Positions 3,948 through 32,145 of a stretch of DNA of 64,000 nt are shown piece after piece; position 1 is the first letter of the stretch; every line of letters begins with the position of its first letter. The translations under genes were made by a program, and so were the position numbers. Source of the DNA: Candidatus Adlerbacteria bacterium. Its GTDB lineage: Bacteria; Patescibacteriota; Minisyncoccia; Phycocordibacterales; SBAW01. The stretch lies in NCBI GenBank assembly GCA_026397405.1, contig JAPLUW010000001.1:171138-235137 (forward strand). The letters are read 5' to 3'. The notes under the pieces were generated by a model that saw only the letters and a program-made list of their open reading frames with translations, was not told where the DNA came from and did no database searches.

Positions 3948-6900
3948 TTACTTCGAGATAGTGTTGCTGAAGCAGTCCTGACCAAGGCCTGAAGATGCAA
4001 AGCATCCGCCGAGACCGTAGCCGTTTGTCCAGTCATTATTGGTTGTTGGAGTCAACACTGTTGATGTTGATTCTGGTGACCAGATAATGTTGCTTGCCTG
4101 GAGAGTACCTGCTGTTGTCGTAGCCAAGCCATTGCCGTTTGAGACAATGAGTGGGAGAGACGTGTCAGCCTTGAGGAAGGTCGAGACTGAACCTGTCGTG
4201 TTTGTACCTGTAAGGGTAACGTTTGCACGGAGGTTGTAAGTCTTGGTTGTTCCTGCTGCCACAACCGCATCAGACGTGTTCGATGAGCTGTCGAAGTAAA
4301 CTACGAGGTTGTTACCTGCAGTTGTAGTCGCAAGCGTGGTCGAAGCGACGTTACCGTTAGGACCTGTGAAGGTCGGGCTGGTGATCGAAGCTGTCGATGT
4401 GTTGATTGTGAAGGTGAGCTTGTTGAGCGTTACGTCACCCTTTGAGTCCGCACCGACGGTGAGGATCAAGAGAGTTTGTGTACCGCTACCAGCCACAGCG
4501 CCTGTTGTGCTGTATGTGAAGGTTGGGAACGATTTGTAGATCGTTGCACCGTTCACTGCAGTCGTTGCGCTTGAAGGCTGACGATTCTGGCCAGATGCGA
4601 CACCAACACCGTAGGTACCGTTTGTACCAGAGACGTTAGAACCATCGTAGTTGACCTTTATAGTGTCACCTGAAGCTGTCAAAGGACCATTGGTGCTGAT
4701 AGCAGCAATGTCACCCTTGATAACGAGGACACGAGAACCGTTGACCGGGATGCGGAATGCACCCGATGCAATTTGTGACGAAGTTGCATTTGTTCCAGAC
4801 GGGAATACCGCTGTACCAACTTGCGTGTTCGTTGTCTGATCCCACAGAGTGACCTGGTTGTTTACGAGGTCAGTGCGAGTACCGCTCGAAAGCTTAAGAG
4901 CAACCTGGCGGAGGTCAATTGCCTCGTTGGTGCCAGAGAAGCGGATGTGGCCGAGGTCAACACCTGTTGAACCTGCAGATACAATGCCGAAGCTTGGAGT
5001 GCTTGAGTCAAGAGCAACTGTCATAGTACCGCCTGATGATGCCGTCATAAGATTGCCGGCATTTGCAGTAAAGGTACCGTTAACTGTTGAACCGCTCGTA
5101 ACACCTGATGCACCTGCAGTTTCAGTTCCGAGGAAGCCGAACTTGTAGGTACCAGTTACACCGCTGCGTACGTCGCAGTTAAGTGCAAGGGTGACTGTTG
5201 TTCCTTTCGGTACAACGATACCACCGCTGTTGAGCGAGAAGCTTGTGTCTGTACCTGAAGCCGGCACTGTTGCCGAAGACGGGTTGAAGACATGCTGGTC
5301 AGATACGCTGGTTGAACCAGAGTAGAGCTGGCAGTTTGTCAGGTCGTTTGCGCTACCACTCCATGTGTATTCAACAGGGAGAGTTGTGAGGCGCAAATCT
5401 TCGCCAGACGCAGTTGCATCAAGAATGATGTTTGCGAATGTGAATTGGTTTGAACCTGCAATAACTGTCTGTGCAATCGGAACTGATGAGACTGTTACGT
5501 TCAACGCTGCGGCCTTTACTGTCTGCGACGCGCTCGTCAAAGAGCTTGCCGGAGAGATAGTGAGGCTGCGGCCAGTTGTCTGGCCTGTAACGGTTGTCCA
5601 CTGAGTCGACGGAGTTGTCGAAGCCTGGATAGTGTCGTTAGTTACGAAGTTGGTGCCAAGTTTACCCTTCAAGAAGAGCTGAGTTGTTCCAACTGGGATA
5701 GTAACTGTGTCGGTGAAGGTTACGAGAGCGTCAGCTGTTGTGCCACCTGTTGTAGCGTCAACTGGGCCCGCAAGCACTGCGCCATTCTGATTCACGAGCG
5801 AAACGCTTGTGATGTCAGCGTAGGTAGCTGCTGAGCTGCCGGCAGTGATCTGGAAGATCATGCGTCCGACAGTTACCGGTTCACCCTGGTCCTGGACAGA
5901 GAAGCCGCCGAAGATCTGGTTCTGCTGGTTGATAGCAACGTTTCCAGAGGTAACTGCGTTCGAAGTCGAAACAGTTATGATACCTGCTGAAATTGTTGCT
6001 GTGAAGCCAGCGTAGTAAGGATCGTCAGATGATTTAACTGCACCGCAGTATGTACCTGCAGCAACACAAGCGTTTGTTGCGTTTGTGCCAGAGCCGAACG
6101 ACGGCAAGATGCCGTAGCCGTACTGTGCACCAACAACGTTGATGTCAGCTGCCTTCTGGATGTCGAAGACAACAGTTGTAGCAGAACCGTTTGCGATGTC
6201 ACCCTGGATTGCAACATCCTTAGAAAAGCCCTTCTGCATAAGAAGACCTGTTCCTGGGAATTGTGCAGTGTAGTAGTTGTCAGTTGAAACTGTTGTCGGA
6301 TACGACACGCCATCAACTGTAACTACAACATTTGAGAGGTATGACTGAGAAACTGAACCAGTCTGGTGGAAGCGGATTGACTTCACGTATGTGTCTTCCT
6401 GTGATCCTGCTGTAAGGCGGATCGAAGAGAATACATATGCAGTCTGACCTACGTTTTCAGTGTTTGCTGAACCCGGGTCATTTGTACCGCGTGAACCTGT
6501 GACAGTACCAATGAGAGTTGTTGTCTCGTTGATTGTGTCAGCTGCACCGCTGATAGGTAGGGAGCCGCTGTTGACTGCCGCGCTGGTGTTAACCGCAACG
6601 ACAGAGAAGCTTGCGACCTGACCTGCGTAGCCACTTGTAGTACCGCGGTTAGCCGCAACCGTGAAGGTCATCGACGTACCGTTAGGGATAACAACCGGAG
6701 CACCAACCACCGCCTGGTGATTGCTGTTCAAAGTCTTGCTGATGCCAATTTGGTTACCGTTTTGGTCGAGCAACATAACGCCGCTGAAAGCTGCGTCCTG
6801 TGCAATACCATCGCGCTGAACCGTAACGTTGTTAAGCGTTACATCGCCACCTGAAGCAGTGACTGTGAAGCGAGTAAACGGAATACGTGCCGCGTTGTTC

Positions 6901-7361
6901 GGAGCAATGCCATTAGCTGGCTGTGCTGCTGCCGATACCGTTGCAGTACCGTTTGTTCCTGGAGTTGGTGTCGGAGTTGGTGTTGGGGTTGTACCTGCAC
7001 AGAGCGAGTTAAGCTTTGCGCGAGTGACAGGACCAACGTTACCAAGCTGGTCGATACCATTTGCTGCCTGGAACTTCATTACTGCTGCCTTTGTCTTTGC
7101 ACCGAAGTACATAGACTCGAGACCTGGAGAACCTGCACCCGTGCTTGAAACCATAGTGCTTGAAGTCATGTTCAAGAACTGCTGGAGCTTCATAACTTCT
7201 GAATTCGTCACTCCAACTGAGAGTGCCTTTGTCCAGACGTTCGGGCATACAGACGCAGCATGTGCTGGTGTGGCAAGAGCCGTACCAAACATTGCTGCGA
7301 CAATTGCTGCGACACCGAGTGTCAATGCAGCAAGCCGTGTAGAACTCTGAGTAATAGTCAT
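3948..7361 (-). CDS. Giant secreted/cell-surface protein with N-terminal peptidoglycan-binding (PGBD-1-like) domain followed by long T/S/G-rich beta-repeat region
   Basis: 1137 aa; signal peptide MTITQSSTRLAALTLGVAAIVAAMFGTALATPAHA; VMKLQQFLN...AAVMKFQAANGIDQLGNVGPVTRAKLN resembles PG_binding_1; (TP)5 linker; remainder low-complexity Ig-like repeats. Confidence 0.75.
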   Translation of the reverse strand: MTITQSSTRLAALTLGVAAIVAAMFGTALATPAHAASVCPNVWTKALSVGVTNSEVMKLQQFLNMTSSTMVSSTGAGSPGLESMYFGAKTKAAVMKFQAANGIDQLGNVGPVTRAKLNSLCAGTTPTPTPTPTPGTNGTATVSAAAQPANGIAPNNAARIPFTRFTVTASGGDVTLNNVTVQRDGIAQDAAFSGVMLLDQNGNQIGISKTLNSNHQAVVGAPVVIPNGTSMTFTVAANRGTTSGYAGQVASFSVVAVNTSAAVNSGSLPISGAADTINETTTLIGTVTGSRGTNDPGSANTENVGQTAYVFSSIRLTAGSQEDTYVKSIRFHQTGSVSQSYLSNVVVTVDGVSYPTTVSTDNYYTAQFPGTGLLMQKGFSKDVAIQGDIANGSATTVVFDIQKAADINVVGAQYGYGILPSFGSGTNATNACVAAGTYCGAVKSSDDPYYAGFTATISAGIITVSTSNAVTSGNVAINQQNQIFGGFSVQDQGEPVTVGRMIFQITAGSSAATYADITSVSLVNQNGAVLAGPVDATTGGTTADALVTFTDTVTIPVGTTQLFLKGKLGTNFVTNDTIQASTTPSTQWTTVTGQTTGRSLTISPASSLTSASQTVKAAALNVTVSSVPIAQTVIAGSNQFTFANIILDATASGEDLRLTTLPVEYTWSGSANDLTNCQLYSGSTSVSDQHVFNPSSATVPASGTDTSFSLNSGGIVVPKGTTVTLALNCDVRSGVTGTYKFGFLGTETAGASGVTSGSTVNGTFTANAGNLMTASSGGTMTVALDSSTPSFGIVSAGSTGVDLGHIRFSGTNEAIDLRQVALKLSSGTRTDLVNNQVTLWDQTTNTQVGTAVFPSGTNATSSQIASGAFRIPVNGSRVLVIKGDIAAISTNGPLTASGDTIKVNYDGSNVSGTNGTYGVGVASGQNRQPSSATTAVNGATIYKSFPTFTYSTTGAVAGSGTQTLLILTVGADSKGDVTLNKLTFTINTSTASITSPTFTGPNGNVASTTLATTTAGNNLVVYFDSSSNTSDAVVAAGTTKTYNLRANVTLTGTNTTGSVSTFLKADTSLPLIVSNGNGLATTTAGTLQASNIIWSPESTSTVLTPTTNNDWTNGYGLGGCFASSGLGQDCFSNTISK

Positions 7362-19544: not shown

Positions 19545-20987
19545 CTAGTCTTTACGCGCAAACAGGTTCTCCGGTTTTTTGTTTGCCACAACTGCGGCTT
19601 TTATTTTTTCTGACGTCTCAGGCATAAACGGGTTTAACATGCGGGCAATAGAATAAAGTTCTTGTGTTAGGTCGAAGATAATTTTCTTTGCTTGTTCGGG
19701 CTCTGTTTTTATAAGTTTAAACGGCTCGGTTTCTGTAATAGTGCGGTCGAGTGCTTGTACTTTTGTAAACACAAAGTCGAGCGCTTTGTGTACTTCAAAA
19801 CTCTCAAGCGCGTGCGTGTATTCTTCCTCAAACCCGGCAGGCTCCGGCCGTGTTCCTACATCTAAATGTTTTTCCGCCAATGTCATAATACGGGCCGAAA
19901 GGTTCCCTAGCCCGTTTGCCAAATTGGCATTATAAATTTCTTTAAAACTCTCTCGTGTTATGTCGCCGTCTTCAAACGGTGTTATGTGGCGCGCCAAAAA
20001 ATACCGCACCGCTTCACCGCCATACTCTTCTATAAGTTCTTCCGGGTCGATAATATTACCGAGCGTTTTGGACATCTTTTTACCACCTGACGTGATAAAC
20101 CCGTGTACAAGCAACGACTTTGGCAGCGGCACCCCGGCCGAAAGTAACATCCCCGGCCAGATTGCCGCATGGAAGCGCAAAATATCTTTGCCTATAACAT
20201 GCACGTTTGCAGGCCAAAATTCTTTGTACAACACTTCATCCTGTCCGTAGCCTAGGGCTGTTACGTAGTTGGCAAGCGCGTCGCACCACACGTACATTAC
20301 CTGGCTGTCATCGCCCGGCACGGGTATACCCAAACCTTGCGGCCACGCGGCTTTGCGCGGGCGCGAAAAACTTACATCTTCAAGGCCTTCGTTTTGTATA
20401 AACGAAAGGATCTCATGTTTGCGGCTTTCCGGCACAATACGAAACTCGTCCGTTTCTATTTTCTCTTGTATCTGTGGAGCATATTTTGAAAGACGGAAGA
20501 AGTAATTTTCCTCTTTAATGAATTCGGGCACCGTGCCGTGGTCGGGGCATTTTCCGTCAACCAAATCTTTTTCAGTAATAAATGCTTCGTGGCCCACACA
20601 GTACAGACCTTCATATGCTTTTTTATAGATGTCCCCCGCAGCAACAAGTTTCTGCCACAATGCTTGGGCGCCTGGCCAATGTTTTTTCTGGTCAGTGGTG
20701 CGGATAAATTGGTCATATGAAATGTCGAGGCCTTTGTAGAGCGAGGCAAAATTTTCGACAATACCGTCCAAAAATACCAATGGTTCTTTCCCCTCTTTTA
20801 CTGCCGAGTCCACCATTTTTTGTGTATTCTCGTCCGAGCCGGTTAAAAAATATACGTGGTCACCTACTAGGCGATGGTAGCGGGCAATAATGTCGGAGAG
20901 CGTTGTTGTATATGCATGGCCCAAATGCAATTTTGCGTTCGGGTAAAAAATTGGTGTGGTTATATAAAACGGTTTCTTTTCGGACAT
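19545..20987 (-). CDS. metG: Methionyl-tRNA synthetase (short form)
   Basis: 480 aa; class I HIGH (PIFYPNAKLHLGHAYT) and KMSKS (KMSKTLGN) motifs. Confidence 0.9.
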   Translation of the reverse strand: MSEKKPFYITTPIFYPNAKLHLGHAYTTTLSDIIARYHRLVGDHVYFLTGSDENTQKMVDSAVKEGKEPLVFLDGIVENFASLYKGLDISYDQFIRTTDQKKHWPGAQALWQKLVAAGDIYKKAYEGLYCVGHEAFITEKDLVDGKCPDHGTVPEFIKEENYFFRLSKYAPQIQEKIETDEFRIVPESRKHEILSFIQNEGLEDVSFSRPRKAAWPQGLGIPVPGDDSQVMYVWCDALANYVTALGYGQDEVLYKEFWPANVHVIGKDILRFHAAIWPGMLLSAGVPLPKSLLVHGFITSGGKKMSKTLGNIIDPEELIEEYGGEAVRYFLARHITPFEDGDITRESFKEIYNANLANGLGNLSARIMTLAEKHLDVGTRPEPAGFEEEYTHALESFEVHKALDFVFTKVQALDRTITETEPFKLIKTEPEQAKKIIFDLTQELYSIARMLNPFMPETSEKIKAAVVANKKPENLFARKD

Positions 20988-20996
20988 GTATTAAAA

Positions 20997-22073
20997 CTAC
21001 TTTGCTGCGCCGTTGTCTGCAAGGCCTTGTTTTGCAAGCGCCCGCTTTTTTTCGCGGTCGATGTCGGCGACATATTCCTGTATTGCGCCAGCAATTGGGA
21101 CCGAAAGTAACACACCCAAAAATCCCACTAGTTTAAAGCCAATGAGTAATGAGAGGATAACCAGCAGCGGCGGTACGCCCACCACTTTTTTAACAACCAC
21201 GGGATAAATTAAATGTGCCTCAAACTGCTGCACAATGGTGTAGAGGCCTGCAATAAGAAGCGCTTCTGTGACACCGCCCGTAGTAAAGCCAATTGCAATT
21301 GCAGGTATCATCGCCAAAATTTGGCCGAACACAGGAATAAGCTCAAACACAGCCGCAAGCAGGGCGAGCAGCAGCGCATGTTGTACACCCAAAATTAGGA
21401 GCCCTAAGTAGAGCAGCACGCCGACAATAACCGCGAGTATAAGCTGCCCTTGCATCCACTTCCCTATTTTTTCTTGCGAGCGGCGCCACAAGTTTAAGAC
21501 ATAGGCCTGCTCTTTTATCGGGGTGATAACGCGCAAAAAGTCGTCGACACCAGTTTCCTGCACTGAAAAATAAAACGAAAACACAACTATCAAAATAAAT
21601 GACGTAACCCCGCCAAAGAAAGCGGACAGTGCATTGAACGCGCCACCTGTTGAGTCTTGGAGCGAGATAGAAAGGTTTTGCAACACATTTGCCGAGGAAA
21701 GTGTGTCGCTGACGTTACCCCACGGAAGCAGGCCGTGCGTCGCATCGGAAATATTTAAATTAGAAAGTGTCGTCGGGAGCTGTGTCAGGAAATTTGCCGC
21801 GTCGCTCAAAATCGGCGGGATAAAGAAAAAGAGTACACCAAAAAATGTACCTATCACCACAAGGTAAATGGTGAGTACCGACAGCAGACGCGGGAACTTA
21901 CGCTTCATCAGGCCGTGTACACCTGGCTCTATAGCCGAGGCAATAACAACAGCTGCAAGCACAATAAGCACTATGTCGCGCAAAAACCACAACAAGGCTA
22001 CAAGCGTCAGAAAAAGAATCGTTTTTATGATGCTTCCCGACGTGATGTGGACGTTTATATCACGGTCTGCCAT
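20997..22073 (-). CDS. AI-2E family (PerM/UPF0118) transporter
   Basis: Start placed at MADRDINV; eight predicted TMS with characteristic large first loop. Confidence 0.7.
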   Translation of the reverse strand: MADRDINVHITSGSIIKTILFLTLVALLWFLRDIVLIVLAAVVIASAIEPGVHGLMKRKFPRLLSVLTIYLVVIGTFFGVLFFFIPPILSDAANFLTQLPTTLSNLNISDATHGLLPWGNVSDTLSSANVLQNLSISLQDSTGGAFNALSAFFGGVTSFILIVVFSFYFSVQETGVDDFLRVITPIKEQAYVLNLWRRSQEKIGKWMQGQLILAVIVGVLLYLGLLILGVQHALLLALLAAVFELIPVFGQILAMIPAIAIGFTTGGVTEALLIAGLYTIVQQFEAHLIYPVVVKKVVGVPPLLVILSLLIGFKLVGFLGVLLSVPIAGAIQEYVADIDREKKRALAKQGLADNGAAK

Positions 22074-22091
22074 AGGCCAAATATAGCACAA

Positions 22092-23498
22092 TTAGGAGTT
22101 TATTTGGTTTTTGATGAACGCAGCCAAGTCAGAAACTGCCATGCGCTCTTGCTCGCCGGTGTCGCGGTGGCGCACAGTTACCGTGTCTTTTAATTCAGGT
22201 TTTTCTCCCAAGGTGTCAAAGTCGACAGTAATGCACCACGGCGTGCCAATTTCGTCCTGCCTGCGGTACCGCTTGCCGATGTTGCCGTTATCGTCCCACA
22301 TAATTTGTGGAATTTCTTTTTTAAGCGCCACGTACACTTCACGCGCTTTTTCTACCAATTCTGGTTTGTTTTTGAGCAATGGAAATACTGCCGCCTTTAC
22401 AGGAGCCACGTGTGGAGCAAGTTTCAATACCACACGCGTCTCCCCTTCCATTTCGTCTTCGTGGTACGCATCACACAATACTGCAAGGAAGACACGCCCC
22501 ATACCCATTGATGTTTCAAGAATCCACGGTATGTACTTCTCGGCCGTAGCAGGGTCGGTATATCGCAAATCAACACCGGAGAATTTCATATGTTGAGAAA
22601 GGTCATAGTCAGTACGGTCATGGATACCCTCAACCTCGTCGAACCCTGAAGGAAATTCATACTCAATATCCCATGCATCTTTTGCATAAAAAACAAGATT
22701 TTCGTGCTGCTTAAATCGCAGTTTTTTCTCACTGATACCGAGCGAAAGATACCAGTTCAGGCGTTCTTGTTTTAGCGCTTCGTACGCATTTTTATTTTCG
22801 TTTGGACGTATAAAAAGCTGCGTATCCGCTTGCTCAAACTCACGAGTTCGAAAGAGAAAGTTACGCGGCGAAATTTCATTACGAAACGCCTTACCTATTT
22901 GTGCAATGCCAAACGGAATCTTTGGCTGCATAGTGTCGACGATATTTTTATAGTCGAGATAAATACCCTGACATGCCTCCCCAGGCAAATATACAGGCTC
23001 ACTTCCCTCCGACGTAAAATCACCGAGGTTACTTTTTACCAGCAAATTAAAAGCGCGTGCGCGGGTAAAATCTTTTTTACCACATACAGGGCATTTGATT
23101 TTGTCGCGATACTGGTCAAACAAAGCATTAATTGAATCTTCGGACATTTTTTCATCCGCTTCAACATTAAGAGCTCCTAGTTCTTTGTCGACGCGAATAC
23201 GCGCGTGGCAGTTACGACATTCTGCAAGAGGGTCTGCAAAACCACCCACATGACCGCTTGCCTCCCATACTTTCGGATGTTTGAACATCCCAGCATCAAG
23301 ACCAAAATAATTTTCTTTACTATAAACGTTGGCATTCCACCACGACTTTTTTATATTGTTTAAAAGCTCTACACCTCGGGGACCAAAATCATAAATTCCC
23401 GCCAAGCCGCCGTAAATTTCTGAACCTTGGTATACAAAACCGCGTCGCTTGCACAGCGAGACTATTTTTTCCATCACGTTTTGTTCTTTTTCAGACAT
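22092..23498 (-). CDS. glyQS: Glycyl-tRNA synthetase (class II, homodimeric alpha2 type)
   Basis: 468 aa; RGFVYQGSEIYGGLAGIYDFGPRG and class II motifs; C-terminal anticodon-binding domain. Confidence 0.9.
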   Translation of the reverse strand: MSEKEQNVMEKIVSLCKRRGFVYQGSEIYGGLAGIYDFGPRGVELLNNIKKSWWNANVYSKENYFGLDAGMFKHPKVWEASGHVGGFADPLAECRNCHARIRVDKELGALNVEADEKMSEDSINALFDQYRDKIKCPVCGKKDFTRARAFNLLVKSNLGDFTSEGSEPVYLPGEACQGIYLDYKNIVDTMQPKIPFGIAQIGKAFRNEISPRNFLFRTREFEQADTQLFIRPNENKNAYEALKQERLNWYLSLGISEKKLRFKQHENLVFYAKDAWDIEYEFPSGFDEVEGIHDRTDYDLSQHMKFSGVDLRYTDPATAEKYIPWILETSMGMGRVFLAVLCDAYHEDEMEGETRVVLKLAPHVAPVKAAVFPLLKNKPELVEKAREVYVALKKEIPQIMWDDNGNIGKRYRRQDEIGTPWCITVDFDTLGEKPELKDTVTVRHRDTGEQERMAVSDLAAFIKNQINS

Positions 23499-23504
23499 AG
23501 AAAA

Positions 23505-25451
23505 TTACTGTTTTGGGGCGACCTGGCCCATGCCATCGGTAAATCCAGTTTCTTGTAGTGCTGTGGTTGGCCCTGCAGCAGTCGCCTGTACACCAACTTG
23601 TGCGAATCTATCTTGGCCCGAGAGGGTCGCTGGGCTCGTCAATGCCGGGGTCTGCCCTACTTGAGACAAGCTGGCAGAAAGCCCTACTTGGAACTGTACG
23701 GTGCGAGTAGGTGCAGAATACCCCGCCCCCGCTTTAATGTCACCAAGAGCCCACGTCACCGTACGGCTTGGCCCGTCGTAGGTAACACCACTCCCTGCAG
23801 GTGCCGCGATAAACGTAACGTACGGCGGCAGCGTTGCCGAGACGACTCCGTTTGCAATAGTATTTGAAGAATTCGTGACCGTCCAGGCGACAGTGTACGA
23901 CGTGCGCTGGTCGGCAACTGGCGGCATAGGCCCCACATTTTGCAGCGAGCCGCTAAAATGCAGCGCCTTGGCAGTGAGGGCAACTATAGACGACACAAGC
24001 AGCTGAGTTGTTGCCGCAGAAGACACCGTTTGCGGCACGTTGTCTTGGCCCTGTCTCACTCCTTTTATTTTAAGCGCGAGGTCGATGGTCGGGTTCGAAT
24101 AGAGCGTGCCTCCGGTTGCCGTTGGGAGGGTGGTAAAAGTAAACGTCAATGTACCAGTGCCTCCGGGCGGCACCGACGCCAATGCAGCCTCTTGGTCTTT
24201 TGACCACGTAATAGTGGAATTAGCCGACTGATAAAAACCGTTTTGGGAAAGGACCGAACCTGTGTCGAGCATTGGCCCCGACAACGACAGTGTTGCCTCA
24301 ACATTGGAAACAGAGTCGGGTAAATTGTTTGTCCAGGTGATAATTCCTTGCATTAAACCTCCTGGTGTAACCGCAATAGTTTTATTTGTTTTGCCGTTAA
24401 CCGCAATGTCTGCGCTGATAAATGCGCGCCGCACCGTAAGGGTTTGCGGCACCGAGAGGAACGGGACTTTTATCTGCGTGTCGGTTTGGTCAGAATCGGA
24501 GCCACCTAAAAAGTAAAAAACTCGGGCGTCGCCGTCTTGACCGTCTATAGTTCCCACAATGTGTATCGTTTTAGATACTCCCGGCGACATAGTCCCCAAC
24601 CGCCACACCGTTCCCCCGGCAACCGGAGCAGGAGCCGCTTTTGCAATCGTAAACCCAAACGGGTACTGTGCCTGGATTACCACATCACTAACCGGAGTAA
24701 GTGCATTGCTCTGCACCGTTAGGTCCATAGCAAATTGCTGGCCGGCAATTGCCTCGCTTGGTGCCGACACGTTAATAGAAATCGGCGACGAGCCCACTGT
24801 AAAATGAGTGGAGGCCTCTTTTTCAAACACAGCATTAGACCCTTCGATACTGTACTGGAGGCTTATAGTTACGTCCTGCGGCGTCCCTTCCTGGCCATAA
24901 AAAATTGCTTGCGCAGTGCGGGTTAATTGCTGACCCGCAGCTATGGAACCAATAGACACCCTGTCGTGTGTCAGTCCTTGCGAAGGAGCGAGAGGGTCAC
25001 GTGTACCTACGGGGTAGTTAATAATGAGGTCGACTAGTTTTAGGTTTGCTTGGTTGCGATTGTTAATGAGTACTTGCAGTGTCGTTGCCTTACCACCGTC
25101 AACAACCGACGGCATCACTACTTGCAGGTCAATATTTTGCGGCGAAATACTCCCTCCGCCGACAAACAACATGTATGCAGCAGCAGCAGCGGCAATACAA
25201 AAAAATACAACCGAGCCGATGAAGAATTTTGTCGTAAACGACATGCCTGGTTTTTTTATACGTGGGGTCAATGTGTATGTTTGGGCAGGTGCGTGGGTGG
25301 GAGTTTCAACAGGCTCAGTCCAATGAGAGGCTGTATGGACGTCACTAAACGTCAAAGGTGTACGTTCTGCCGTGTCCACAGTAGGCGCGTCTTTCCTTGA
25401 ATAGAGCGCGGTCTTAAGGCCGTCGATGGAGTCTTTTTTTTCGGCCGCCAT
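23505..25451 (-). CDS. Hypothetical single-pass membrane protein with large extracellular beta-rich domain
   Basis: Start placed at MAAEKKDSIDG to avoid overlap with recO; TM helix FFIGSVVFFCIAAAAAAYMLFV; ~550 aa extracellular region of unknown fold. Confidence 0.5.
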   Translation of the reverse strand: MAAEKKDSIDGLKTALYSRKDAPTVDTAERTPLTFSDVHTASHWTEPVETPTHAPAQTYTLTPRIKKPGMSFTTKFFIGSVVFFCIAAAAAAYMLFVGGGSISPQNIDLQVVMPSVVDGGKATTLQVLINNRNQANLKLVDLIINYPVGTRDPLAPSQGLTHDRVSIGSIAAGQQLTRTAQAIFYGQEGTPQDVTISLQYSIEGSNAVFEKEASTHFTVGSSPISINVSAPSEAIAGQQFAMDLTVQSNALTPVSDVVIQAQYPFGFTIAKAAPAPVAGGTVWRLGTMSPGVSKTIHIVGTIDGQDGDARVFYFLGGSDSDQTDTQIKVPFLSVPQTLTVRRAFISADIAVNGKTNKTIAVTPGGLMQGIITWTNNLPDSVSNVEATLSLSGPMLDTGSVLSQNGFYQSANSTITWSKDQEAALASVPPGGTGTLTFTFTTLPTATGGTLYSNPTIDLALKIKGVRQGQDNVPQTVSSAATTQLLVSSIVALTAKALHFSGSLQNVGPMPPVADQRTSYTVAWTVTNSSNTIANGVVSATLPPYVTFIAAPAGSGVTYDGPSRTVTWALGDIKAGAGYSAPTRTVQFQVGLSASLSQVGQTPALTSPATLSGQDRFAQVGVQATAAGPTTALQETGFTDGMGQVAPKQ

Positions 25452-25470
25452 TCCAGAAGTATACAATACC

Positions 25471-26052
25471 CTACAGTCCGCTTGCCCCGAGAGACTCATT
25501 AATAACGCGTATAAGCGCCGGACGGAGCGCCCGCGCTTCTGTAGTTACCGTAGGAGAAAATTCATTGTTTGCAACAAACGGCATACTTATTTCAGTCTGT
25601 TCCAAATATCCCAAATGCGAAAGCACGCGCAGTACAAGTACGCATTCTGCATTCTCAATCTCTGCCTCATCCAAACCCCCTGCCATATACGCAAACCCTC
25701 CACGCACAGTTGTATACAATTCTGGCACTGGCTCTTCCCCGTTAATAAGCCGCAGAAGCAAACGTGCAACACGACCCGATGCCCGACGCTGTAAAAGTGT
25801 CTGTCCAAAATACGCACGCGACAACTGCTCGACACCGGTTAACTTCCATTCATAGCGACCACGCAGCATGGCAAACCTACCCTGCGTCAGGGGCTCCAGC
25901 CCGTAGCGCAACTTCGAATGTTCAACACGGGCCGAACGAGCCGACGCACGCACCAGCCCCACATCTTTCGTTAGGAGAAAGATACTCGTATTGGCCTCAC
26001 CAATACCACGCTTCCCAAGCACTATGCCGTCTGTTGCGACAATGGTATGCAT
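25471..26052 (-). CDS. recO: DNA repair protein RecO (short form)
   Basis: 193 aa; N-terminal OB-fold region DGIVLGKRGIGEANTSIFLLTKDVGLV...GRFAMLRGRYEWKLTGVEQL typical of RecO. Confidence 0.7.
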   Translation of the reverse strand: MHTIVATDGIVLGKRGIGEANTSIFLLTKDVGLVRASARSARVEHSKLRYGLEPLTQGRFAMLRGRYEWKLTGVEQLSRAYFGQTLLQRRASGRVARLLLRLINGEEPVPELYTTVRGGFAYMAGGLDEAEIENAECVLVLRVLSHLGYLEQTEISMPFVANNEFSPTVTTEARALRPALIRVINESLGASGL

Positions 26053-26053
26053 C

Positions 26054-29000
26054 TTACTTCACCACCAACTGCAGGTCCTCTAGGCCAGTCTGGGCCATAA
26101 GAGCTGTTTTATTTTTTTCAGCAACTATTTTTTCTTCCGCAGAAACTAGAAGTGTGCAAACGGGCCGGTCGGCAATAGTTAGTTTTTGCTCTTTGCGCCA
26201 CTCTTGTATACGGCGCGCCAAGTCGCGTACGACACCCTCCTCCTTTAATTCTGGAGTCAGTTCTGTGTCGAGCGAAACATCGTCTACTTGTGCGACATCT
26301 TCTACTACTTTTTTTACATTTAATTCGTCTTTAATAAGTGCGCGTAGGCCGTCGTCGTTGGGAAGTTGTTTTGCCACAAGCGCAGCAAGAGGCTGGCGAA
26401 TTTTTATACCCGCAGACTCGCGCAACTCCAACCCCTTAGACGCAACTTCGCGCACGCGGACCATGTCGGCAAGCAGCGCTGTATCTACTTTTTCTGCGGC
26501 AGGCCAAACCGACAAATGGACACTCTCTGGGTCACCTTCTTCCTTCATGCGGCCGAACAGCTCGTCGGCAAAAAACGGCATCACGGGCGCCATAGTGTGT
26601 GCAAGCGTGTGTAACACAAAGCGCAGTGTAGCGAGTGCCTGCACCTTCCCTTCCCCATCTGTTTTAAAACGGTCGCGAGAACGGCGCAGGTACCAGGTAG
26701 AAAGGTCGTCGATAAACAATGCGAGCGGGCGTGTCGCTGCATCAAGCTCATAACTTTCAAACCCTGCAGTAGTTTGTGTGGTCAACTCGCCAAGCCGCGA
26801 CAAAATCCATCGGTCGAGTGGGTGTGTACTTGTATTTGAACGCACCGTGCCGTCTGCATACAACTCATAGAAGGACACGACGTTGTCCAAACGCATCAGG
26901 AGTTTTTTTGAAACCTCTTCAACCCCTTGTTCTTTAAAACTCAGGTCTTCACCGCGGACAAGTTGCGACGACAGAATGTAATAGCGGAGCGAGTCTACTC
27001 CGTATTTGTCGATAAGATCAAGCGGGTCAGGATAATTTTTCAATCGTTTACTCATCTTCTTACCGTCGCTCGCGTTAATGAGCCCTGTCGTAATGACATT
27101 TTTGTATGGCGACCTCCCAAAGAGTGCAGTCCCGAGCACAATAAGCGAGTAGAACCAGCCGCGTGTCTGGTCAACAGCTTCTGCAATAAAGTCGGCTGGG
27201 TATCCTTTTGGCATCAATCCAAACATTTTTTTCGGATTGAAATTGTTTTTTTGAAACGGATAGTGGTTAGACCCGTACGGCATCGAGCCCGACTCAAACC
27301 AACAATCAAACACATCGGGGACACGCTTCCACTCACCCGCCAAAGAGTCCCCGAGCAGGATGTCGTCAATAAACGGCCGGTGCAGGTCAAGTTCGTACTG
27401 TTCGTTATGTGGGAACGGTACAAACGGTAATTCTGCGCACTCTGCATTACCAAGCATAGCTGTGCGGTAAAAACCTGTCGTCGGTTGGCGCCCAACTACT
27501 TGCTGCAATGCCCAAATAGCACCACCGTGCGAAACTACAAGTATGTTTTTGCCGCTGTAACGCCTCTCAATTTCAAAAATAAATTCGCCTACATTGCGGC
27601 AAAGTTCAGGTGTTACATGGGCTACTTCTCCCAAACGAGTGTCCACCATAACTGCAGACTCAGGCAGGCCAAACTCGTTCGCCAAGAGGTGCGCTGTTTC
27701 TTTAGTCCGGACAAAAGGCGACGTAACTATCATGTCTATTTTTTTTGAAGCAAGTGCTCGTGCGGCAGACAACACCTGTGCCCTACCTTTCTTGGTGAGG
27801 TGGTTATTTGGGTCACCTTCAATATCTTCTACATTGTCGACATTTGACTGTGCTTCGCCGTGGCGCATTACAAAATATTTGTTGCCTGAGCGGCGTACAA
27901 CCTGTAACAGCTCTTCAACAGAGCCCATCACTTTCAATTCTTTGGTTTTGCTGTGGCGCCAAACTGGTAGAGGTGCGCCCCAGTAACGGCTGCGGGAAAT
28001 TGCCCAGTCAGGCGCACTTTCAAGACCTTTTTGGAAACGCCCTTCTCCCGTGCTTTTCGGCACCCAAGAAACTTTTTTATTTTGTGCCAACAATTTTGGT
28101 TTTATTTTTGAAACACTTACAAACCAGGAATTTGCAGCCCAGTTGAGGAGCGGTGTGTCGCAGCGCCAGCAGTGCGGGTATGAGTGAGTTATTTTTTCCT
28201 GATGGAAAAGCAACCCACGGGCGTGCAGGTTCTCTACAATCTTTGCATCCGTTTCCATATGGCGACCTTTTGGTTTGACCGGGAGCCCTACAAAGTCGGT
28301 GACCGTTGCAATAAATTTACCTTCGTCAGTGACGTGTTGGATAAGCGGAATTTTTTCTTTCTGGGCAAAGATCAAGTCTTCTGCGCCGTAGGCAGGTGCA
28401 AGGTGGACAATGCCCGTGCCGTCTTCAAGCGTCACATATGGTGCGGCATATATTTTATACGCGTGGCTTTTATGTTTATGGAGCGTATGTTCGAAATAGC
28501 TAAATGGTGGCTTGTATCGTTTGCCTACCAGGTCTTTGCCCAGTATCTCGGCAAATATTTTTGCATCTTCGCCAAGCACTTTTGCCATAAGCTCTTTCGC
28601 AACAACAACAAAGCCTTCGTCTGTGCGGACTTTTACATACACAGCGTCGGCGTTCACTGCAGCCGCAGTGTTGCCCGGCAATGTCCACGGAGTGGTAGTC
28701 CAAATAAGTATGGATGTTTCCGGTTCGTCTACAAGTGGAAACTTTACTGTCACCGCAATATCTTCAATGTCCATGTAGCCTTGGGCTACTTCGTTGTTGG
28801 AAAGCGTCGTTCCGCAACGAGGACAAAAATGCATACCCTTGAAGCCCTCGTAAATAAGTCCGCGACTGTGCAAATTTTTAAACGCCCACCAGACCGACTC
28901 GGTATAGGTCGAGTCCATCGTCTTGTAGTCGTTCTCCATGTCAGCCCAGCGCCCGATGCGCGGGATGATACGCTTCCAGTCCGCAACATCTTTCATGATG

Positions 29001-29404
29001 CTTGTTCGAGCAGCTTTGTTGAAATTTGCAATGCCAAACTCTTCAATGTCGCGCTTTGACTTAAACCCCAATTCTTTTTCTACCAAGTTTTCAACCGGTA
29101 GACCGTGGCAGTCCCATCCCCAGCGGCGCGGCACACGGTACCCCCGCATTGTGCGGTAGCGAGGTATGGCGTCTTTTATTGTGCTTTGCAGCAAGTGCCC
29201 ATAGTGAGGCAACCCGTTGGCAAACGGTGGGCCGTCGTAGAAAACAAATTCGCCCTTGGGTGCAGGTTTTTCCAGCGTTTTTTTAAATATGTCCTGTGCT
29301 TCCCAAAAGCGAAGAGTCTTTTCCTCTCGTACAGCAAAAGCACTTTTTGGTTTATGCACCGCTTCTGGGTGCAGCTCTTCCCCGCCCTGCTTCAAATCAT
29401 CCAT
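26054..29404 (-). CDS. ileS: Isoleucyl-tRNA synthetase carrying an internal histidine-phosphatase (PGAM-like) domain insertion
   Basis: 1116 aa; HIGH (PHYGHLL), editing CP1 domain, KMSKS (KMSKRLKN); ~190-aa insert between ...GAPLPVWR and ELDLHRPFIDD containing FVMRHGEAQSN and LVVSHGGAI. Confidence 0.9.
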   Translation of the reverse strand: MDDLKQGGEELHPEAVHKPKSAFAVREEKTLRFWEAQDIFKKTLEKPAPKGEFVFYDGPPFANGLPHYGHLLQSTIKDAIPRYRTMRGYRVPRRWGWDCHGLPVENLVEKELGFKSKRDIEEFGIANFNKAARTSIMKDVADWKRIIPRIGRWADMENDYKTMDSTYTESVWWAFKNLHSRGLIYEGFKGMHFCPRCGTTLSNNEVAQGYMDIEDIAVTVKFPLVDEPETSILIWTTTPWTLPGNTAAAVNADAVYVKVRTDEGFVVVAKELMAKVLGEDAKIFAEILGKDLVGKRYKPPFSYFEHTLHKHKSHAYKIYAAPYVTLEDGTGIVHLAPAYGAEDLIFAQKEKIPLIQHVTDEGKFIATVTDFVGLPVKPKGRHMETDAKIVENLHARGLLFHQEKITHSYPHCWRCDTPLLNWAANSWFVSVSKIKPKLLAQNKKVSWVPKSTGEGRFQKGLESAPDWAISRSRYWGAPLPVWRHSKTKELKVMGSVEELLQVVRRSGNKYFVMRHGEAQSNVDNVEDIEGDPNNHLTKKGRAQVLSAARALASKKIDMIVTSPFVRTKETAHLLANEFGLPESAVMVDTRLGEVAHVTPELCRNVGEFIFEIERRYSGKNILVVSHGGAIWALQQVVGRQPTTGFYRTAMLGNAECAELPFVPFPHNEQYELDLHRPFIDDILLGDSLAGEWKRVPDVFDCWFESGSMPYGSNHYPFQKNNFNPKKMFGLMPKGYPADFIAEAVDQTRGWFYSLIVLGTALFGRSPYKNVITTGLINASDGKKMSKRLKNYPDPLDLIDKYGVDSLRYYILSSQLVRGEDLSFKEQGVEEVSKKLLMRLDNVVSFYELYADGTVRSNTSTHPLDRWILSRLGELTTQTTAGFESYELDAATRPLALFIDDLSTWYLRRSRDRFKTDGEGKVQALATLRFVLHTLAHTMAPVMPFFADELFGRMKEEGDPESVHLSVWPAAEKVDTALLADMVRVREVASKGLELRESAGIKIRQPLAALVAKQLPNDDGLRALIKDELNVKKVVEDVAQVDDVSLDTELTPELKEEGVVRDLARRIQEWRKEQKLTIADRPVCTLLVSAEEKIVAEKNKTALMAQTGLEDLQLVVK

Positions 29405-29443
29405 ATCAAAAATATAGCACTGTGGGGCTATTTTTGCCCGTCC

Positions 29444-31030
29444 CTACATTTCCTCCGGTGCCGGTATGCCCAAAACGACTAGACCTTTGTGCAACGTATG
29501 TTCAACAGCAGTAACAAGCGCCAATGCGTGGGCAGAGACTTTTCCGTCGACTATCAAACGCGTCTGTGCATACCAGCTGTTAAATGCCGCAGCCAGTTCG
29601 GTACTGTATGTAATAACGTAATGTGGTTCAAGTTCAAGCGACGCACGAGCAATAACATCCGGGAAATGCACAAGCAGGCGCTCGAGTTCACTGGGTGCAG
29701 TTTCTTTTTGCACTACTTCCGCTTCAGTGGCTTTCCGCAAAAGTGCACGAGCACGCACAAGTGCATACTGCACATAGGGCCCTGAGTCGCCTTCGAGGGA
29801 AAGAGATTTTTCCGGATCAAACACAATATCTTTCCCCGTCCCCTGTCGTAACACCATGTACTTGATAGCACCAACAGCCACATCTTCCCGACCACGTGCT
29901 TCTTCTGTCAGATCTTTAATCAATGATTCTCCTGTGATGACATTCCCCAGTCGCGACGACATTTTCCCAGTCGTGAGCTTCATAAAGCCGTGGAAACGAG
30001 TCAACATTTTGTCTTCCAAGTCTGGGAAGATTTTTTCTGCAGCTGCACGTACAACTTTAAAGTAGTCTCGCGTTTCGTTGGCAGTAACAGTAAGAGAAAG
30101 GTCAAACTGTCCCTTCTTCTTTTTTGCAACAACAAGACCAAGCTCCTTTGCTTCGTAGGTTGGGATTCCTTTACTGTTTACGAAGACACGCGTGTGCAGC
30201 CCCACATCCTCACCTCGAAAAATAATAGCTCCTTCACTTTGTGTAAAAACTTCCGGATGCTGTTCTACAAGTTGTAAGCCGAGCGGTCCGGTTTCGTGTT
30301 CGAAGAAATAGTAATCAAACTTCGTACCGAGGATTTTATAAATCTCCTCAAAATGCGCGAGCGACTCTTCTCGACCTTCGTCATAGAGCTTGTTTACTGT
30401 CGCGTCACTCTTTTCATAAATAGTCTTGTTGAGCTCGTCTATTTCCTGCTTGTGAGTTTCATATTCTGCCGAGCCATGCACATACGCTTGGCCCCACGAA
30501 TCTCCAGGCTTTTGCTGTTTGCCCCAAATGGCTTTAGCAACATGCACACCAACATCACCTTGGTAGTTCGACCGCTTAACATCTGCACCACCAGCTGCAA
30601 ATAACCGCGCGATACTTTCGCCAATTGCATTGCTCATCAAGTGGCCAATATGAAATTCTTTGAACGGGTTCGGGTCCGTATATTCCACCAATACTTTTTT
30701 ACCTATATACAAATCATTGCTACCCCAGCCTTCCTTGTTCGCTTCCTGTACAACCTCAGCAAGTGTCTCGGCTGAAAGATAAAAATTTATAAAACCTGCG
30801 CCGGCGACTTCTACTTTTTCTACACCTTGTATATTTCCTACTGCTTCTTGCAGCTCTGCTGCGACATCACGTGGATTCTTTTTTAAAATTTTGGCAGCCG
30901 CGAGTGCTGCATTGGTGGCATAGTCGCCATGCGCCATGTCAGTAGGCCTCTCCACCACAAAAGCTACTTCCTCGGCCCCCATAGCCTTCAGTGCATTTTG
31001 TACTGCCTGTTCAATATCATTCCGGACCAT
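29444..31030 (-). CDS. argS: Arginyl-tRNA synthetase
   Basis: Start placed at MVRNDIEQ; Arg_tRNA_synt_N fold, HVGH-like HIGHLMSNAIGE motif, C-terminal DALR anticodon-binding domain. Confidence 0.85.
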   Translation of the reverse strand: MVRNDIEQAVQNALKAMGAEEVAFVVERPTDMAHGDYATNAALAAAKILKKNPRDVAAELQEAVGNIQGVEKVEVAGAGFINFYLSAETLAEVVQEANKEGWGSNDLYIGKKVLVEYTDPNPFKEFHIGHLMSNAIGESIARLFAAGGADVKRSNYQGDVGVHVAKAIWGKQQKPGDSWGQAYVHGSAEYETHKQEIDELNKTIYEKSDATVNKLYDEGREESLAHFEEIYKILGTKFDYYFFEHETGPLGLQLVEQHPEVFTQSEGAIIFRGEDVGLHTRVFVNSKGIPTYEAKELGLVVAKKKKGQFDLSLTVTANETRDYFKVVRAAAEKIFPDLEDKMLTRFHGFMKLTTGKMSSRLGNVITGESLIKDLTEEARGREDVAVGAIKYMVLRQGTGKDIVFDPEKSLSLEGDSGPYVQYALVRARALLRKATEAEVVQKETAPSELERLLVHFPDVIARASLELEPHYVITYSTELAAAFNSWYAQTRLIVDGKVSAHALALVTAVEHTLHKGLVVLGIPAPEEM

Positions 31031-31047
31031 ACTGCATACAGTAGCAG

Positions 31048-32145
31048 CTAGAGGGTGGTTGTGGAAAGTGCTGGTGTACTGCTGGAAATGACTGCCGTAA
31101 ATGTGATGCTTCCAATAATTTGACCTTTTGTTGTCTCTACCATGCAGCGCCATTGGCCCGGCACAAGTGCCTCGGTAATGCTAAAACCTCGATACCCTTC
31201 TGCCCTTCCACCGTTTATAGGAAACTGCACACGCGAAATTTGCTGCCAGTTGTTGCTTGGTACATCAAAATATTCCCACACATGTACCACCGGGGTCGAC
31301 AAGTCGCCCGGTGCAAACACCGCACTAAAACAGTAAGCAGGGCTCCCTACTGCTGCGGTGTAGGTGTCGGCTGTGTCGCGCCAAAATTCGTACCACTTCT
31401 TTTTTTCGTACACTCCTGCGTAGTCGCCTGTGCTGGTGCGCGTTACGGAATGGTAAATTCCTGCACTTTTAAGCGACAGGGGCACCGGCGGTATAACGTT
31501 TAAAAAATAAAATATATTAAACACCACAAATATTGCGACAATGACTGCGCGCATTTCCCACAGTTGGCGTTTTTTGTCGGGCCCCCGCAGTGCAAATATT
31601 CTAAGCAGCGACAGTACGCCAGCCATAACAGCAAGACTTACCGCAGTGCTTATCAAAAATGTACTTGTACCTATTGTGTGCAAAACAAAGGTTGGCAATG
31701 CGATAACTATGTACGTCAGCAGCAAAAAGTAATACACCGCGATGTTAAAACGCAGCTGTGCGTAGCGGCTTTTGAGCAGTTCGTTGCCGACAAGCAAACA
31801 CACCAACAGTGCCAAGAAAAATACACTGCCGCCAAACGACCCACTTTTACCGTAGAGGATAAGCAAGTTACTTGCCAACCCTCCAAAACAAAACTGGAGC
31901 ACGAGCAGCAAAAAGAGCGGTTCTACTTTTTTGTCGCCTGTCGCCTCTTCCATACTGCGGCGGTTCAAGAAAATAATTATTGTCGCAGCAGTAGACAGGT
32001 AAAAAAGCAGCAGAATATTATCCGGGATACTGTCTGGCCGTTTGGCAAGAATAAGGTCAAACGTAAAACCACACAGGACCGTAACGGCCGCCAAGCGCTT
32101 TTCGTATCGGCTCCAGAGTTCTACCAGTCTATTGAGGCGTGCCAT
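31048..32145 (-). CDS. Multi-pass membrane protein with C-terminal extracytoplasmic domain (hypothetical)
   Basis: 365 aa; six or more predicted TMS followed by ~140-aa soluble C-terminal domain. Confidence 0.5.
   Translation of the reverse strand: MARLNRLVELWSRYEKRLAAVTVLCGFTFDLILAKRPDSIPDNILLLFYLSTAATIIIFLNRRSMEEATGDKKVEPLFLLLVLQFCFGGLASNLLILYGKSGSFGGSVFFLALLVCLLVGNELLKSRYAQLRFNIAVYYFLLLTYIVIALPTFVLHTIGTSTFLISTAVSLAVMAGVLSLLRIFALRGPDKKRQLWEMRAVIVAIFVVFNIFYFLNVIPPVPLSLKSAGIYHSVTRTSTGDYAGVYEKKKWYEFWRDTADTYTAAVGSPAYCFSAVFAPGDLSTPVVHVWEYFDVPSNNWQQISRVQFPINGGRAEGYRGFSITEALVPGQWRCMVETTKGQIIGSITFTAVISSSTPALSTTTL

Follow-up and report, generated by a model that had tools for sequence, protein, structure and literature searches.

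Aminoacyl-tRNA synthetases (aaRSs) are among the best-studied enzymes, and the extra domains that they carry usually serve editing, RNA binding or moonlighting signalling. What role, then, might a histidine phosphatase play when it is built into the body of an isoleucyl-tRNA synthetase (IleRS)? This question is raised by a 64,000-nucleotide stretch of a Candidatus Adlerbacteria assembly (contig JAPLUW010000001.1, positions 171,138 to 235,137; hereafter the window), from a bacterium belonging to the candidate phyla radiation (CPR), in which the ileS gene encodes a protein of 1116 residues. An initial annotation, made from the letters of the sequence, had pointed to histidine-phosphatase motifs within this gene and had raised the possibility of a recent domain insertion. 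We examined the boundaries, identity, conservation and distribution of the inserted domain. The results indicate that it is very probably a selected, catalytically competent phosphatase nested within the synthetase, and that this architecture is widely shared among relatives.

The phosphatase domain interrupts CP3 within a single IleRS reading frame

As initially proposed, ileS is a single in-frame open reading frame (ORF), uninterrupted over its entire length (Table 1). The protein scored 876.8 bits against the NCBIfam ileS model TIGR00392 (cutoff 621.4), and Pfam recovered tRNA-synt_1 (PF00133, E=9.6e-132) as a match that is split by His_Phos_1; chance would not give such scores. The segment first singled out, 27395-27955, corresponds exactly to residues 484-670, and its flanks GAPLPVWR (residues 476-483) and ELDLHRPFIDD (residues 671-681) lie where they had been placed, as do the two hallmark motifs FVMRHGEAQSN (residues 511-521, 27842-27874) and LVVSHGGAI (residues 622-630, 27515-27541).

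Alignment to solved type-2 enzymes located the insertion point. Yeast IleRS (8wnd/7d5c) aligns to residues 22-502 and 672-1034 of the query, with only its chain residues 492-497 in between. The solved type-2 IleRSs (yeast 8wnd/7d5c, Candida 6ldk, Thermus 1ile) have ~6 residues at this point, inside connective peptide 3 (CP3), which bears out the initial statement that canonical IleS has only a short connector here. The insert itself was therefore confirmed, and its size was revised: because residues 484-502 (HSKTKELKVMGSVEELLQV) form the ordinary CP3 hairpin and first helix of solved type-2 IleRSs, the net insert amounts to ~168 residues (~503-671; 27392-27898 in the window) and not to ~190. 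CP3 comprises residues 459-526 in Saccharomyces cerevisiae IleRS (ScIleRS; PMC7955072) and is described as beta-beta-alpha-alpha in the Candida enzyme (PMC7191050). In the full-length AlphaFold2 model, strands at 481-484 and 490-492 and a helix at 496-501 are followed by the alpha/beta phosphatase (from the strand at 509-514 to that at 656-659) and then by a helix at 678-681, an order that places the phosphatase between the two CP3 helices.

Host and insert meet at short junctions that are modelled with confidence. Within the insert region of the full-length model the predicted local distance difference test (pLDDT) score is 90-96, with no low-confidence linker, and the junction motifs, SGNxYF ahead of the RHG strand and FxPFPHN past the last strand, are conserved among 121 sequences. 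The C-terminal half of CP3 then continues with the ELDLHRPFIDD helix and a degenerate, Cys-less knuckle before the Rossmann fold is taken up again (DVFDCWFESG). Four residues of this half (D673, H675, R676 and P677) are invariant among 88 relatives.

The insert is a histidine phosphatase of no characterised subfamily

We examined the identity of the insert by profile and by fold. PF00300 (His_Phos_1) matched at E=2.3e-22 and 80.1 bits, against a gathering cutoff of 21.7; relatives with a longer form of the domain, described below, scored 93-270 bits. Modelled alone, the domain reached a pLDDT of 95.1 and a predicted template modelling (pTM) score of 0.91. Foldseek returned mycobacterial GpgP, RosC, HFP of the riboflavin pathway, PspA, PhoE and CobC at template modelling (TM) scores of ~0.65-0.73, together with TIGAR, PGAM5 and Sts-1, and all matches were branch-1 His_Phos enzymes; the probability was 1.00 for GpgP, RosC, PspA, PhoE, CobC and TIGAR. 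The best target-normalised TM score for the query form (0.71) was obtained with the compact, SixA-like 3f2i. In the comparison of the domain profile with sequences of the Protein Data Bank (PDB), the top match was phosphoserine phosphatase PspA of Hydrogenobacter (4ij5, E=2.4e-35), followed by Bacillus PhoE (1ebb, 8.6e-35; 1h2e, ~9e-35), with CobC (6nru, 1.7e-27) and TIGAR also among the matches. Structures of dPGM matched only across profile positions ~4-113, the N-terminal ~110 residues.

To assign a more specific function, we compared the query domain, as well as long-form copies and copies from two other insertion sites (B and C, below), with curated equivalog cutoffs. None was reached: CobC (TIGR03162) scored 39-109 against a cutoff of 162.9 bits, dPGM_arch (NF038349) 49-106 against 225, GpmB 34-72 against 261, PRK01112 (dPGM) 24-38 against 320, PspA (NF045917) 32-95 against 350 and SixA (TIGR00249) 41.9-45.8 against 74.5. 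The top or near-top NCBIfam match was NF005567, a bifunctional RNase H/acid phosphatase. A missing phosphoglycerate mutase (PGM) and a SixA, CobC or PspA equivalog were rejected on these cutoffs. The histidine-phosphatase assignment of the initial description is upheld by Pfam and by fold, with the refinement that the domain falls below the SixA and all phosphoglycerate-mutase cutoffs. The domain is a member of the His_Phos superfamily, similar to PhoE, PspA, CobC and GpgP, that belongs to no characterised subfamily.

Catalytic residues are retained and the insert is under purifying selection

Residue conservation was determined for the 121 sequences, which share 60-99% overall identity (Table 1). 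Besides the predicted catalytic residues, N521 is conserved in 99% of them. A separate alignment of 42 sequences that includes very distant copies from sites A, B and C shows no variation in the Arg-His pair, the second Arg or the second His.

The domain occurs in two forms that differ in the cap, measured here from the catalytic Glu to the following Arg. The short form, seen in 46 of the 121 sequences including the query (12 residues), is ~29 residues shorter than the long form of the other 75, in which the cap segment carries GxFDGK...EW...GGE. The catalytic residues are all retained in both: at the position of E593, short forms have Glu (42/46) or Asp (4/46), and long forms always have Glu (75/75). 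Loss of the cap looks like a derived trait of an Adlerbacteria/Nomurabacteria-like subgroup, and the ~29-residue deletion probably gives a more open, less selective active site.

Selection was estimated by the Nei-Gojobori method against three close relatives. For the insert, the ratio of nonsynonymous to synonymous substitution rates (dN/dS) was 0.02, 0.07 and 0.11; the remainder of the gene gave 0.06, 0.09 and 0.04. Purifying selection on the insert is as strong as that on the synthetase body.

The architecture is widespread among Parcubacteria

PF00300 was present in all 120 of the best homologues, for which the named carriers are Candidatus Adlerbacteria, Nomurabacteria, Paceibacterota, Minisyncoccia and the Patescibacteria group. 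His_Phos is also carried by 95 of the 150 nearest cluster representatives (50%-identity clusters), which are 37-61% identical to the query. A scan of GTDB with two narrow peptide patterns and one genome per species confirmed the architecture at no fewer than 540 loci, a lower bound, and all of the named ones belong to Parcubacteria/Paceibacteria, spanning Adler-, Nomura-, Zambryski-, Taylor-, Kaiser- and Vogelbacteria as well as other members of the group. The best of these loci, 99% identical, is from a Ca. Adlerbacteria metagenome-assembled genome, in agreement with the CPR origin that the initial annotation had presumed.

The earlier suggestion of a recent domain insertion is refuted by this distribution, since the architecture is seen in 120/120 homologues, in 95/150 representatives as distant as ~37-40% identity and in no fewer than 540 GTDB species. 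The GC content of the insert (0.47-0.51) equals that of its flanks, and on this and the wide sharing a recent insertion or horizontal transfer was rejected. These comparisons show that the architecture is old and has been inherited vertically across a large part of Parcubacteria/Paceibacteria.

IleRS accommodates phosphatases at several sites, and other enzymes as well

We mapped domain placement in the 150 representatives against conserved IleRS anchors, and placements were confirmed with Pfam. Most carriers (83) have the domain only at the site of the query, inside CP3 (site A). Site B, past CWFESGSMPYA..HYPF and ahead of FIAEGLDQTRGWFY, is the only occupied site in 4 representatives, and site C, past KMSKS and just ahead of the anticodon-binding helices, in another 4. 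Sites B and C are both occupied in 2, sites A and C in 1, and 1 has two copies in the region of site A; no His_Phos insert was found in the remaining 55. Two copies are therefore present in 4 of the 150 representatives. Catalytic residues are intact in the copies at sites B and C. The site B carriers are P0167, P0183, P0199, P0226, P0227 and P0248, one of the site B proteins being annotated as Candidatus Peregrinibacteria, and the site C carriers are P0207, P0217, P0238, P0270, P0158, P0226 and P0248. In P0164, the second copy lies past DLHK. One relative that lacks an insert is annotated as Pacebacteria.

How the domain came to occupy several sites was approached through its stand-alone relatives. 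Against a profile of site A domains, stand-alone PhoE, PspA and two 216-residue metagenomic proteins scored 129-135 bits and the copies at sites B and C scored 122-195 bits. Because the stand-alone scores fall within the range of the site B and C copies, they do not distinguish repeated capture from a single capture followed by duplication and relocation. The nearest neighbours of embedded copies share only 31-46% identity with them, and a search for stand-alone relatives with a site C domain as query returned just two matches, at 32-35% identity. In proteins with two copies, the copies are not each other's closest relatives. Such proteins would be the intermediates that a model of capture followed by duplication and relocation predicts.

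Other enzymes were found in frame within IleRS among these representatives. NUDIX domains, which lie in the CP1 region and in one case at site A, occur in P0225, P0235, P0244, P0222 and P0266; GNAT acetyltransferases in P0199, P0227 and P0231; and a Ser_hydrolase (PF06821) in P0207. P0174 contains a P-loop kinase (AAA_18/AAA_33-like) and His_Phos inside one IleRS, and P0214 has a 186-residue insert for which no family was identified. Nested enzymes cluster at a few hot spots, namely the CP1 region, site A in CP3, and site B. In CPR bacteria, IleRS thus has the look of a general carrier for accessory enzymes, and a permissive carrier scaffold would fit with the same loops holding enzymes of unrelated families (NUDIX, GNAT, P-loop kinase, Ser_hydrolase). 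A different kind of insert was seen in P0218 (937 residues), in which a fragment of an IS200-type Y1 transposase (PF01797, E=7.7e-15) lies in frame at core-model position ~295, in the CP1 region; this may represent a disrupted gene, or may hint at how foreign segments enter loops.

The synthetase host and its genomic neighbourhood

The host is a complete and presumably working type-2 IleRS. In addition to the features in Table 1, residues 209-411 align to the isolated IleRS editing-domain structures 1wk8/1wny, and T236-T238, W240, T241, G329-G331 and H334 of the editing domain are invariant among the 88 relatives. The query missed the cutoff of NF040702 (ileS_w_GNAT; 356 vs 1999 bits), and it has no GNAT domain. 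It also missed the exception models for the mupirocin-resistant enzymes MupA and MupB (634 and 689 vs 1900).

Table 1. Features of the ileS gene, its nested domain and neighbouring genes in the window
Feature	Residues	Position in window	Strand	Observation
ileS ORF		26054..29404	-	1116 aa, uninterrupted; type-2 (eukaryote/archaea-like) IleRS with nested phosphatase
HYGH (class I HIGH signature)	67-70	29195..29206	-	H67, G69 and H70 invariant in 88 relatives
CP1 editing domain	~205-410	28175..28792	-	TTTPWT and GTGxVH motifs conserved
N-terminal half of CP3 (WGAPLPVW strand, beta-hairpin, first helix GSVEELL)	475-502	27899..27982	-	Aligns to ScIleRS through residue 491
Nested His_Phos_1 (branch 1) domain	~503-671	27392..27898	-	PF00300; short, cap-less form
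RHG motif (R514 and predicted phospho-accepting H515)	514-516	27857..27865	-	100% in 121 relatives
R566, second phosphate-pocket arginine (SPxxRTxET motif)	566	27707..27709	-	100% conserved
E593, predicted general acid (DxRLxE motif)	593	27626..27628	-	97% conserved
Shortened cap segment	594-604	27593..27625	-	12-16 aa in short forms vs 39-43 aa in long forms
H626, second catalytic-core histidine (SHGG motif)	626	27527..27529	-	99% conserved
C-terminal half of CP3	672-700	27305..27391	-	Aligns to ScIleRS from residue 498
KMSKR (class I KMSKS signature)	783-787	27044..27058	-	K783, M784, S785 and K786 invariant in 88 relatives
Anticodon-binding helical domain	864-1007	26384..26815	-	PF08264, E=9.3e-27
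C-terminal DUF5915 region, typical of type-2 IleRS	1043-1106	26087..26278	-	PF19302, E=3.9e-12
MetRS		19545-20987	-	
Class II aaRS		22092-23498	-	
recO-like ORF		25471-26052	-	RecO_N, E=1.1e-10
ArgRS		29444-31153	-	

The neighbourhood is of a housekeeping character and co-directional, running from MetRS through an AI-2E transporter, a class II aaRS, a DUF11 protein, RecO and IleRS to ArgRS, and continuing past ArgRS with DUF2914, serine hydroxymethyltransferase (SHMT), thymidylate kinase and a deaminase. Four aaRS genes thus lie within 12 kb (19545-31153, minus strand). When IleRS was compared with the MetRS, the ArgRS and the one class II aaRS of the window, an extra domain was present in IleRS only, and no ValRS or LeuRS gene was found in the window or at the related loci retrieved. 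Every His_Phos match in the window and at 81 related loci lies inside ileS; no stand-alone His_Phos gene was found in the 951 kb around the related loci, nor beside the insert-less CPR ileS at the one locus examined (P0153). As a search for a separate partner gene, this outcome is uninformative about function. An anti-phage defence module was considered and rejected, there being no PADLOC match.

Several further observations concern the neighbouring genes. The start of the recO-like ORF at 26052 is described as overlapping the ileS stop codon (26054-26056), which suggests a possible translational coupling. The longest ORF of ArgRS begins ~42 codons upstream of the start of the Arg_tRNA_synt_N match (residue 46), and translation probably begins at an internal Met instead, in MVRNDIEQ. 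Two large, sparsely annotated proteins may be located at the cell surface: one of 664 residues, which has DUF11 repeats and a hydrophobic segment at its N terminus (23505-25499), and one of 1137 residues with a peptidoglycan-binding domain as its only match (3948-7361).

Relation to known systems

The query resembles the type-2 IleRSs of S. cerevisiae (7d5c/8wnd), C. albicans (6ldk) and T. thermophilus (1ile) at E ~1e-200, and shares with them the Rossmann fold with HIGH and KMSKS, the CP core, the CP1 editing domain, CP2, CP3, the anticodon-binding domain and DUF5915. Unlike these enzymes, its CP3 is broken between helices by the ~168-residue phosphatase, and the cysteines of the Thermus Zn knuckle are absent. 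The nested domain has the same fold and the same Arg-His/Arg/Glu/His constellation as PhoE (B. stearothermophilus YhfR, 1ebb/1h2e), PspA (4ij5), CobC, GpgP (Rv2419c) and RosC, with profile E-values of 1e-35 to 1e-22; these, however, are free proteins of ~200 residues, whereas the query domain is nested and has lost ~29 residues of the cap.

Fusions of each partner have precedents. The curated family NF040702 (isoleucine--tRNA ligase, N-acetyltransferase domain-containing) likewise combines IleRS with an additional enzymatic domain, although the passenger of the query is a phosphatase. PFK-2/FBPase-2 (P-loop kinase and His_Phos) and NF005567 (Rv2228c type) join His_Phos_1 to a second enzyme, as here, but they are end-to-end fusions, whereas the phosphatase of the query interrupts a loop of its host, an aaRS. 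Extra domains are also found in other aaRSs, including CP1 editing domains, the LeuRS-specific domain, GST/WHEP/EMAPII and the N-terminal domains of M. penetrans MetRS (PMC13215547). Such additions are mostly editing modules, RNA- or protein-binding modules or terminal appendages, in contrast to a phosphatase within the catalytic body. Full-text literature searches returned no description of an IleRS that contains a histidine phosphatase or a GNAT domain, and none of an aaRS whose catalytic body encloses a catalytic phosphomonoesterase. The architecture is visible in database annotations through precomputed Pfam domains, and many carriers are labelled only as class I tRNA ligase family protein. 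Both multi-domain aaRSs and His_Phos fusions are already known; a catalytic phosphatase set within an aaRS body throughout a clade is a new variation on them.

Possible functions of the nested phosphatase

We propose one bifunctional polypeptide, in which a type-2 IleRS carries an autonomous phosphatase of the PhoE/PspA type in its peripheral CP3. From the established chemistry of the superfamily, phosphomonoesters would be hydrolysed through a phospho-His515 intermediate, with R514, R566 and H626 holding the phosphate and E593 acting as the general acid. The steps beyond this are the least certain ones. The substrate would be a small phosphorylated metabolite or a nucleotide, as for the nearest relatives; the main effect of the fusion would be to ensure that the phosphatase is co-expressed, constitutively and stoichiometrically, with an enzyme essential for translation, and the fusion may also position the phosphatase at the translation machinery, with no new step in aminoacylation. 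The proposal is based on the near relatives, all of which are small-molecule phosphatases, and on the same loops being host to unrelated enzymes. We advance tentatively, at somewhat less than an even chance, that the domain is a small-molecule phosphatase without mechanistic coupling to IleRS; the broader proposal, a working IleRS joined to an active small-molecule phosphatase with co-expression as the main benefit, we consider evenly poised. Several points weigh against it. His_Phos occurs at no fewer than three different IleRS loops across CPR lineages, sometimes as two intact copies, and this recurrence is hard to explain as neutral hitchhiking and hints at a specific advantage of pairing IleRS with a phosphatase. 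CP3 is flanked in sequence by residues of the CCA pocket (in ScIleRS, the CP2-3 linker 453-465, D527 and W529 line the tRNA-CCA/reveromycin pocket; PMC7955072), so that the phosphatase might conceivably act at the tRNA 3' end. Finally, because no curated equivalog cutoff was reached, no specific function can be transferred from a characterised relative.

The recurrence at several loops and the adjoining CCA pocket would favour a coupled third active site, with a phosphatase substrate that itself passes through IleRS: the (pyro)phosphorylated 3' end of tRNA-Ile (repaired after damage by a nuclease or toxin), nucleotides left as by-products when tRNA is aminoacylated, or inhibitors that mimic the aminoacyl-adenylate. 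The NUDIX, GNAT, kinase and hydrolase inserts of related IleRSs would then have comparable jobs. Such coupling is also in keeping with the confinement of His_Phos to ileS, with the undecorated state of the other synthetases of the window, with the rigid, conserved junctions, with the mostly nucleotide- or phosphate-handling nature of the other nested domains (NUDIX, P-loop kinase) and with the similarity of the cap-less form to minimal open-site phosphatases such as 3f2i. It is nevertheless at odds with the small-molecule substrates of all the nearest characterised relatives and with the lack of any defence match by PADLOC. CP3, moreover, is described as peripheral, and the acceptor-stem contacts described for ScIleRS with tRNA are those of the catalytic and editing domains and not of CP3. 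We therefore regard coupling as unlikely, if worth serious attention. We know of no His_Phos enzyme that acts on the tRNA 3' end, and a narrower version, in which CPR IleRS would have evolved to carry extra catalytic sites and its phosphatase would clear tRNA-Ile of a blocking 3'-(pyro)phosphate or break down phosphorylated, adenylate-like inhibitors where they enter the active site, with sister inserts in comparable roles, strikes us as decidedly unlikely.

The remaining explanations are further from the evidence. Several shallow Parcubacteria clades are reported to lack PGM, perhaps because their forms are too divergent to be detected (PMC7304191), and this report gives rise to the idea that the domain is a missing metabolic enzyme, either PGM or a specific phosphoserine or alpha-ribazole phosphatase, overlooked inside ileS. 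The best NCBIfam matches do include dPGM_arch, CobC and PspA, and PspA leads the PDB matches; all equivalog scores (dPGM_arch, GpmB, PspA, CobC) are nonetheless far below their cutoffs, and dPGM structures match only in their N-terminal part. In mutases the cap segment supplies substrate-binding residues, and the short form of the query is without it, so that a hidden metabolic enzyme seems improbable. Still more improbable to us is a protein phosphatase or regulatory switch that dephosphorylates IleRS or a partner, in the manner of SixA, PGAM5 or Sts-1, or that senses a phospho-ligand to tune IleRS. The compact, cap-less form is SixA-like in size (TIGR00249 at 42-46 bits), PGAM5, Sts-1 and 3f2i are among the Foldseek matches, and the intact core favours catalysis over mere binding; yet the SixA cutoff is not reached, most members (75/121 close relatives and most representatives) are long, capped and PhoE-like, and no kinase partner is evident in the window. 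Lastly, S506 and H666-N667 superficially recall intein termini, as might be expected of an inert passenger or an artefact, whether an assembly chimera, a spliced-out intein-like element or a decaying insertion. We give this almost no credence, given the same architecture in hundreds of independent assemblies, the low dN/dS, the invariant catalytic residues and a GC content equal to that of the flanks. An intein in particular was rejected: there is no match to a Hint domain, the fold is that of His_Phos, and N667 is followed by a variable residue (E, A, D) that is seldom Cys, Ser or Thr.

Implications

If the phosphatase is a passenger only, as in the bifunctional polypeptide that we prefer, genome-reduced CPR bacteria would be shown to pack accessory enzymes into essential genes. 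Enzymes so packed would be invisible to gene-by-gene metabolic reconstruction, which bears on the enzymes reported as missing from these organisms. If it is instead coupled to tRNA or adenylate chemistry, it would constitute a new kind of aaRS active site, and, should the 3'-end or inhibitor reading be true, a built-in function in tRNA-end repair or as an antitoxin, for which there is no known aaRS precedent. Either way, the nested domain offers a concrete, expressible biochemical target from organisms that are mostly uncultured.

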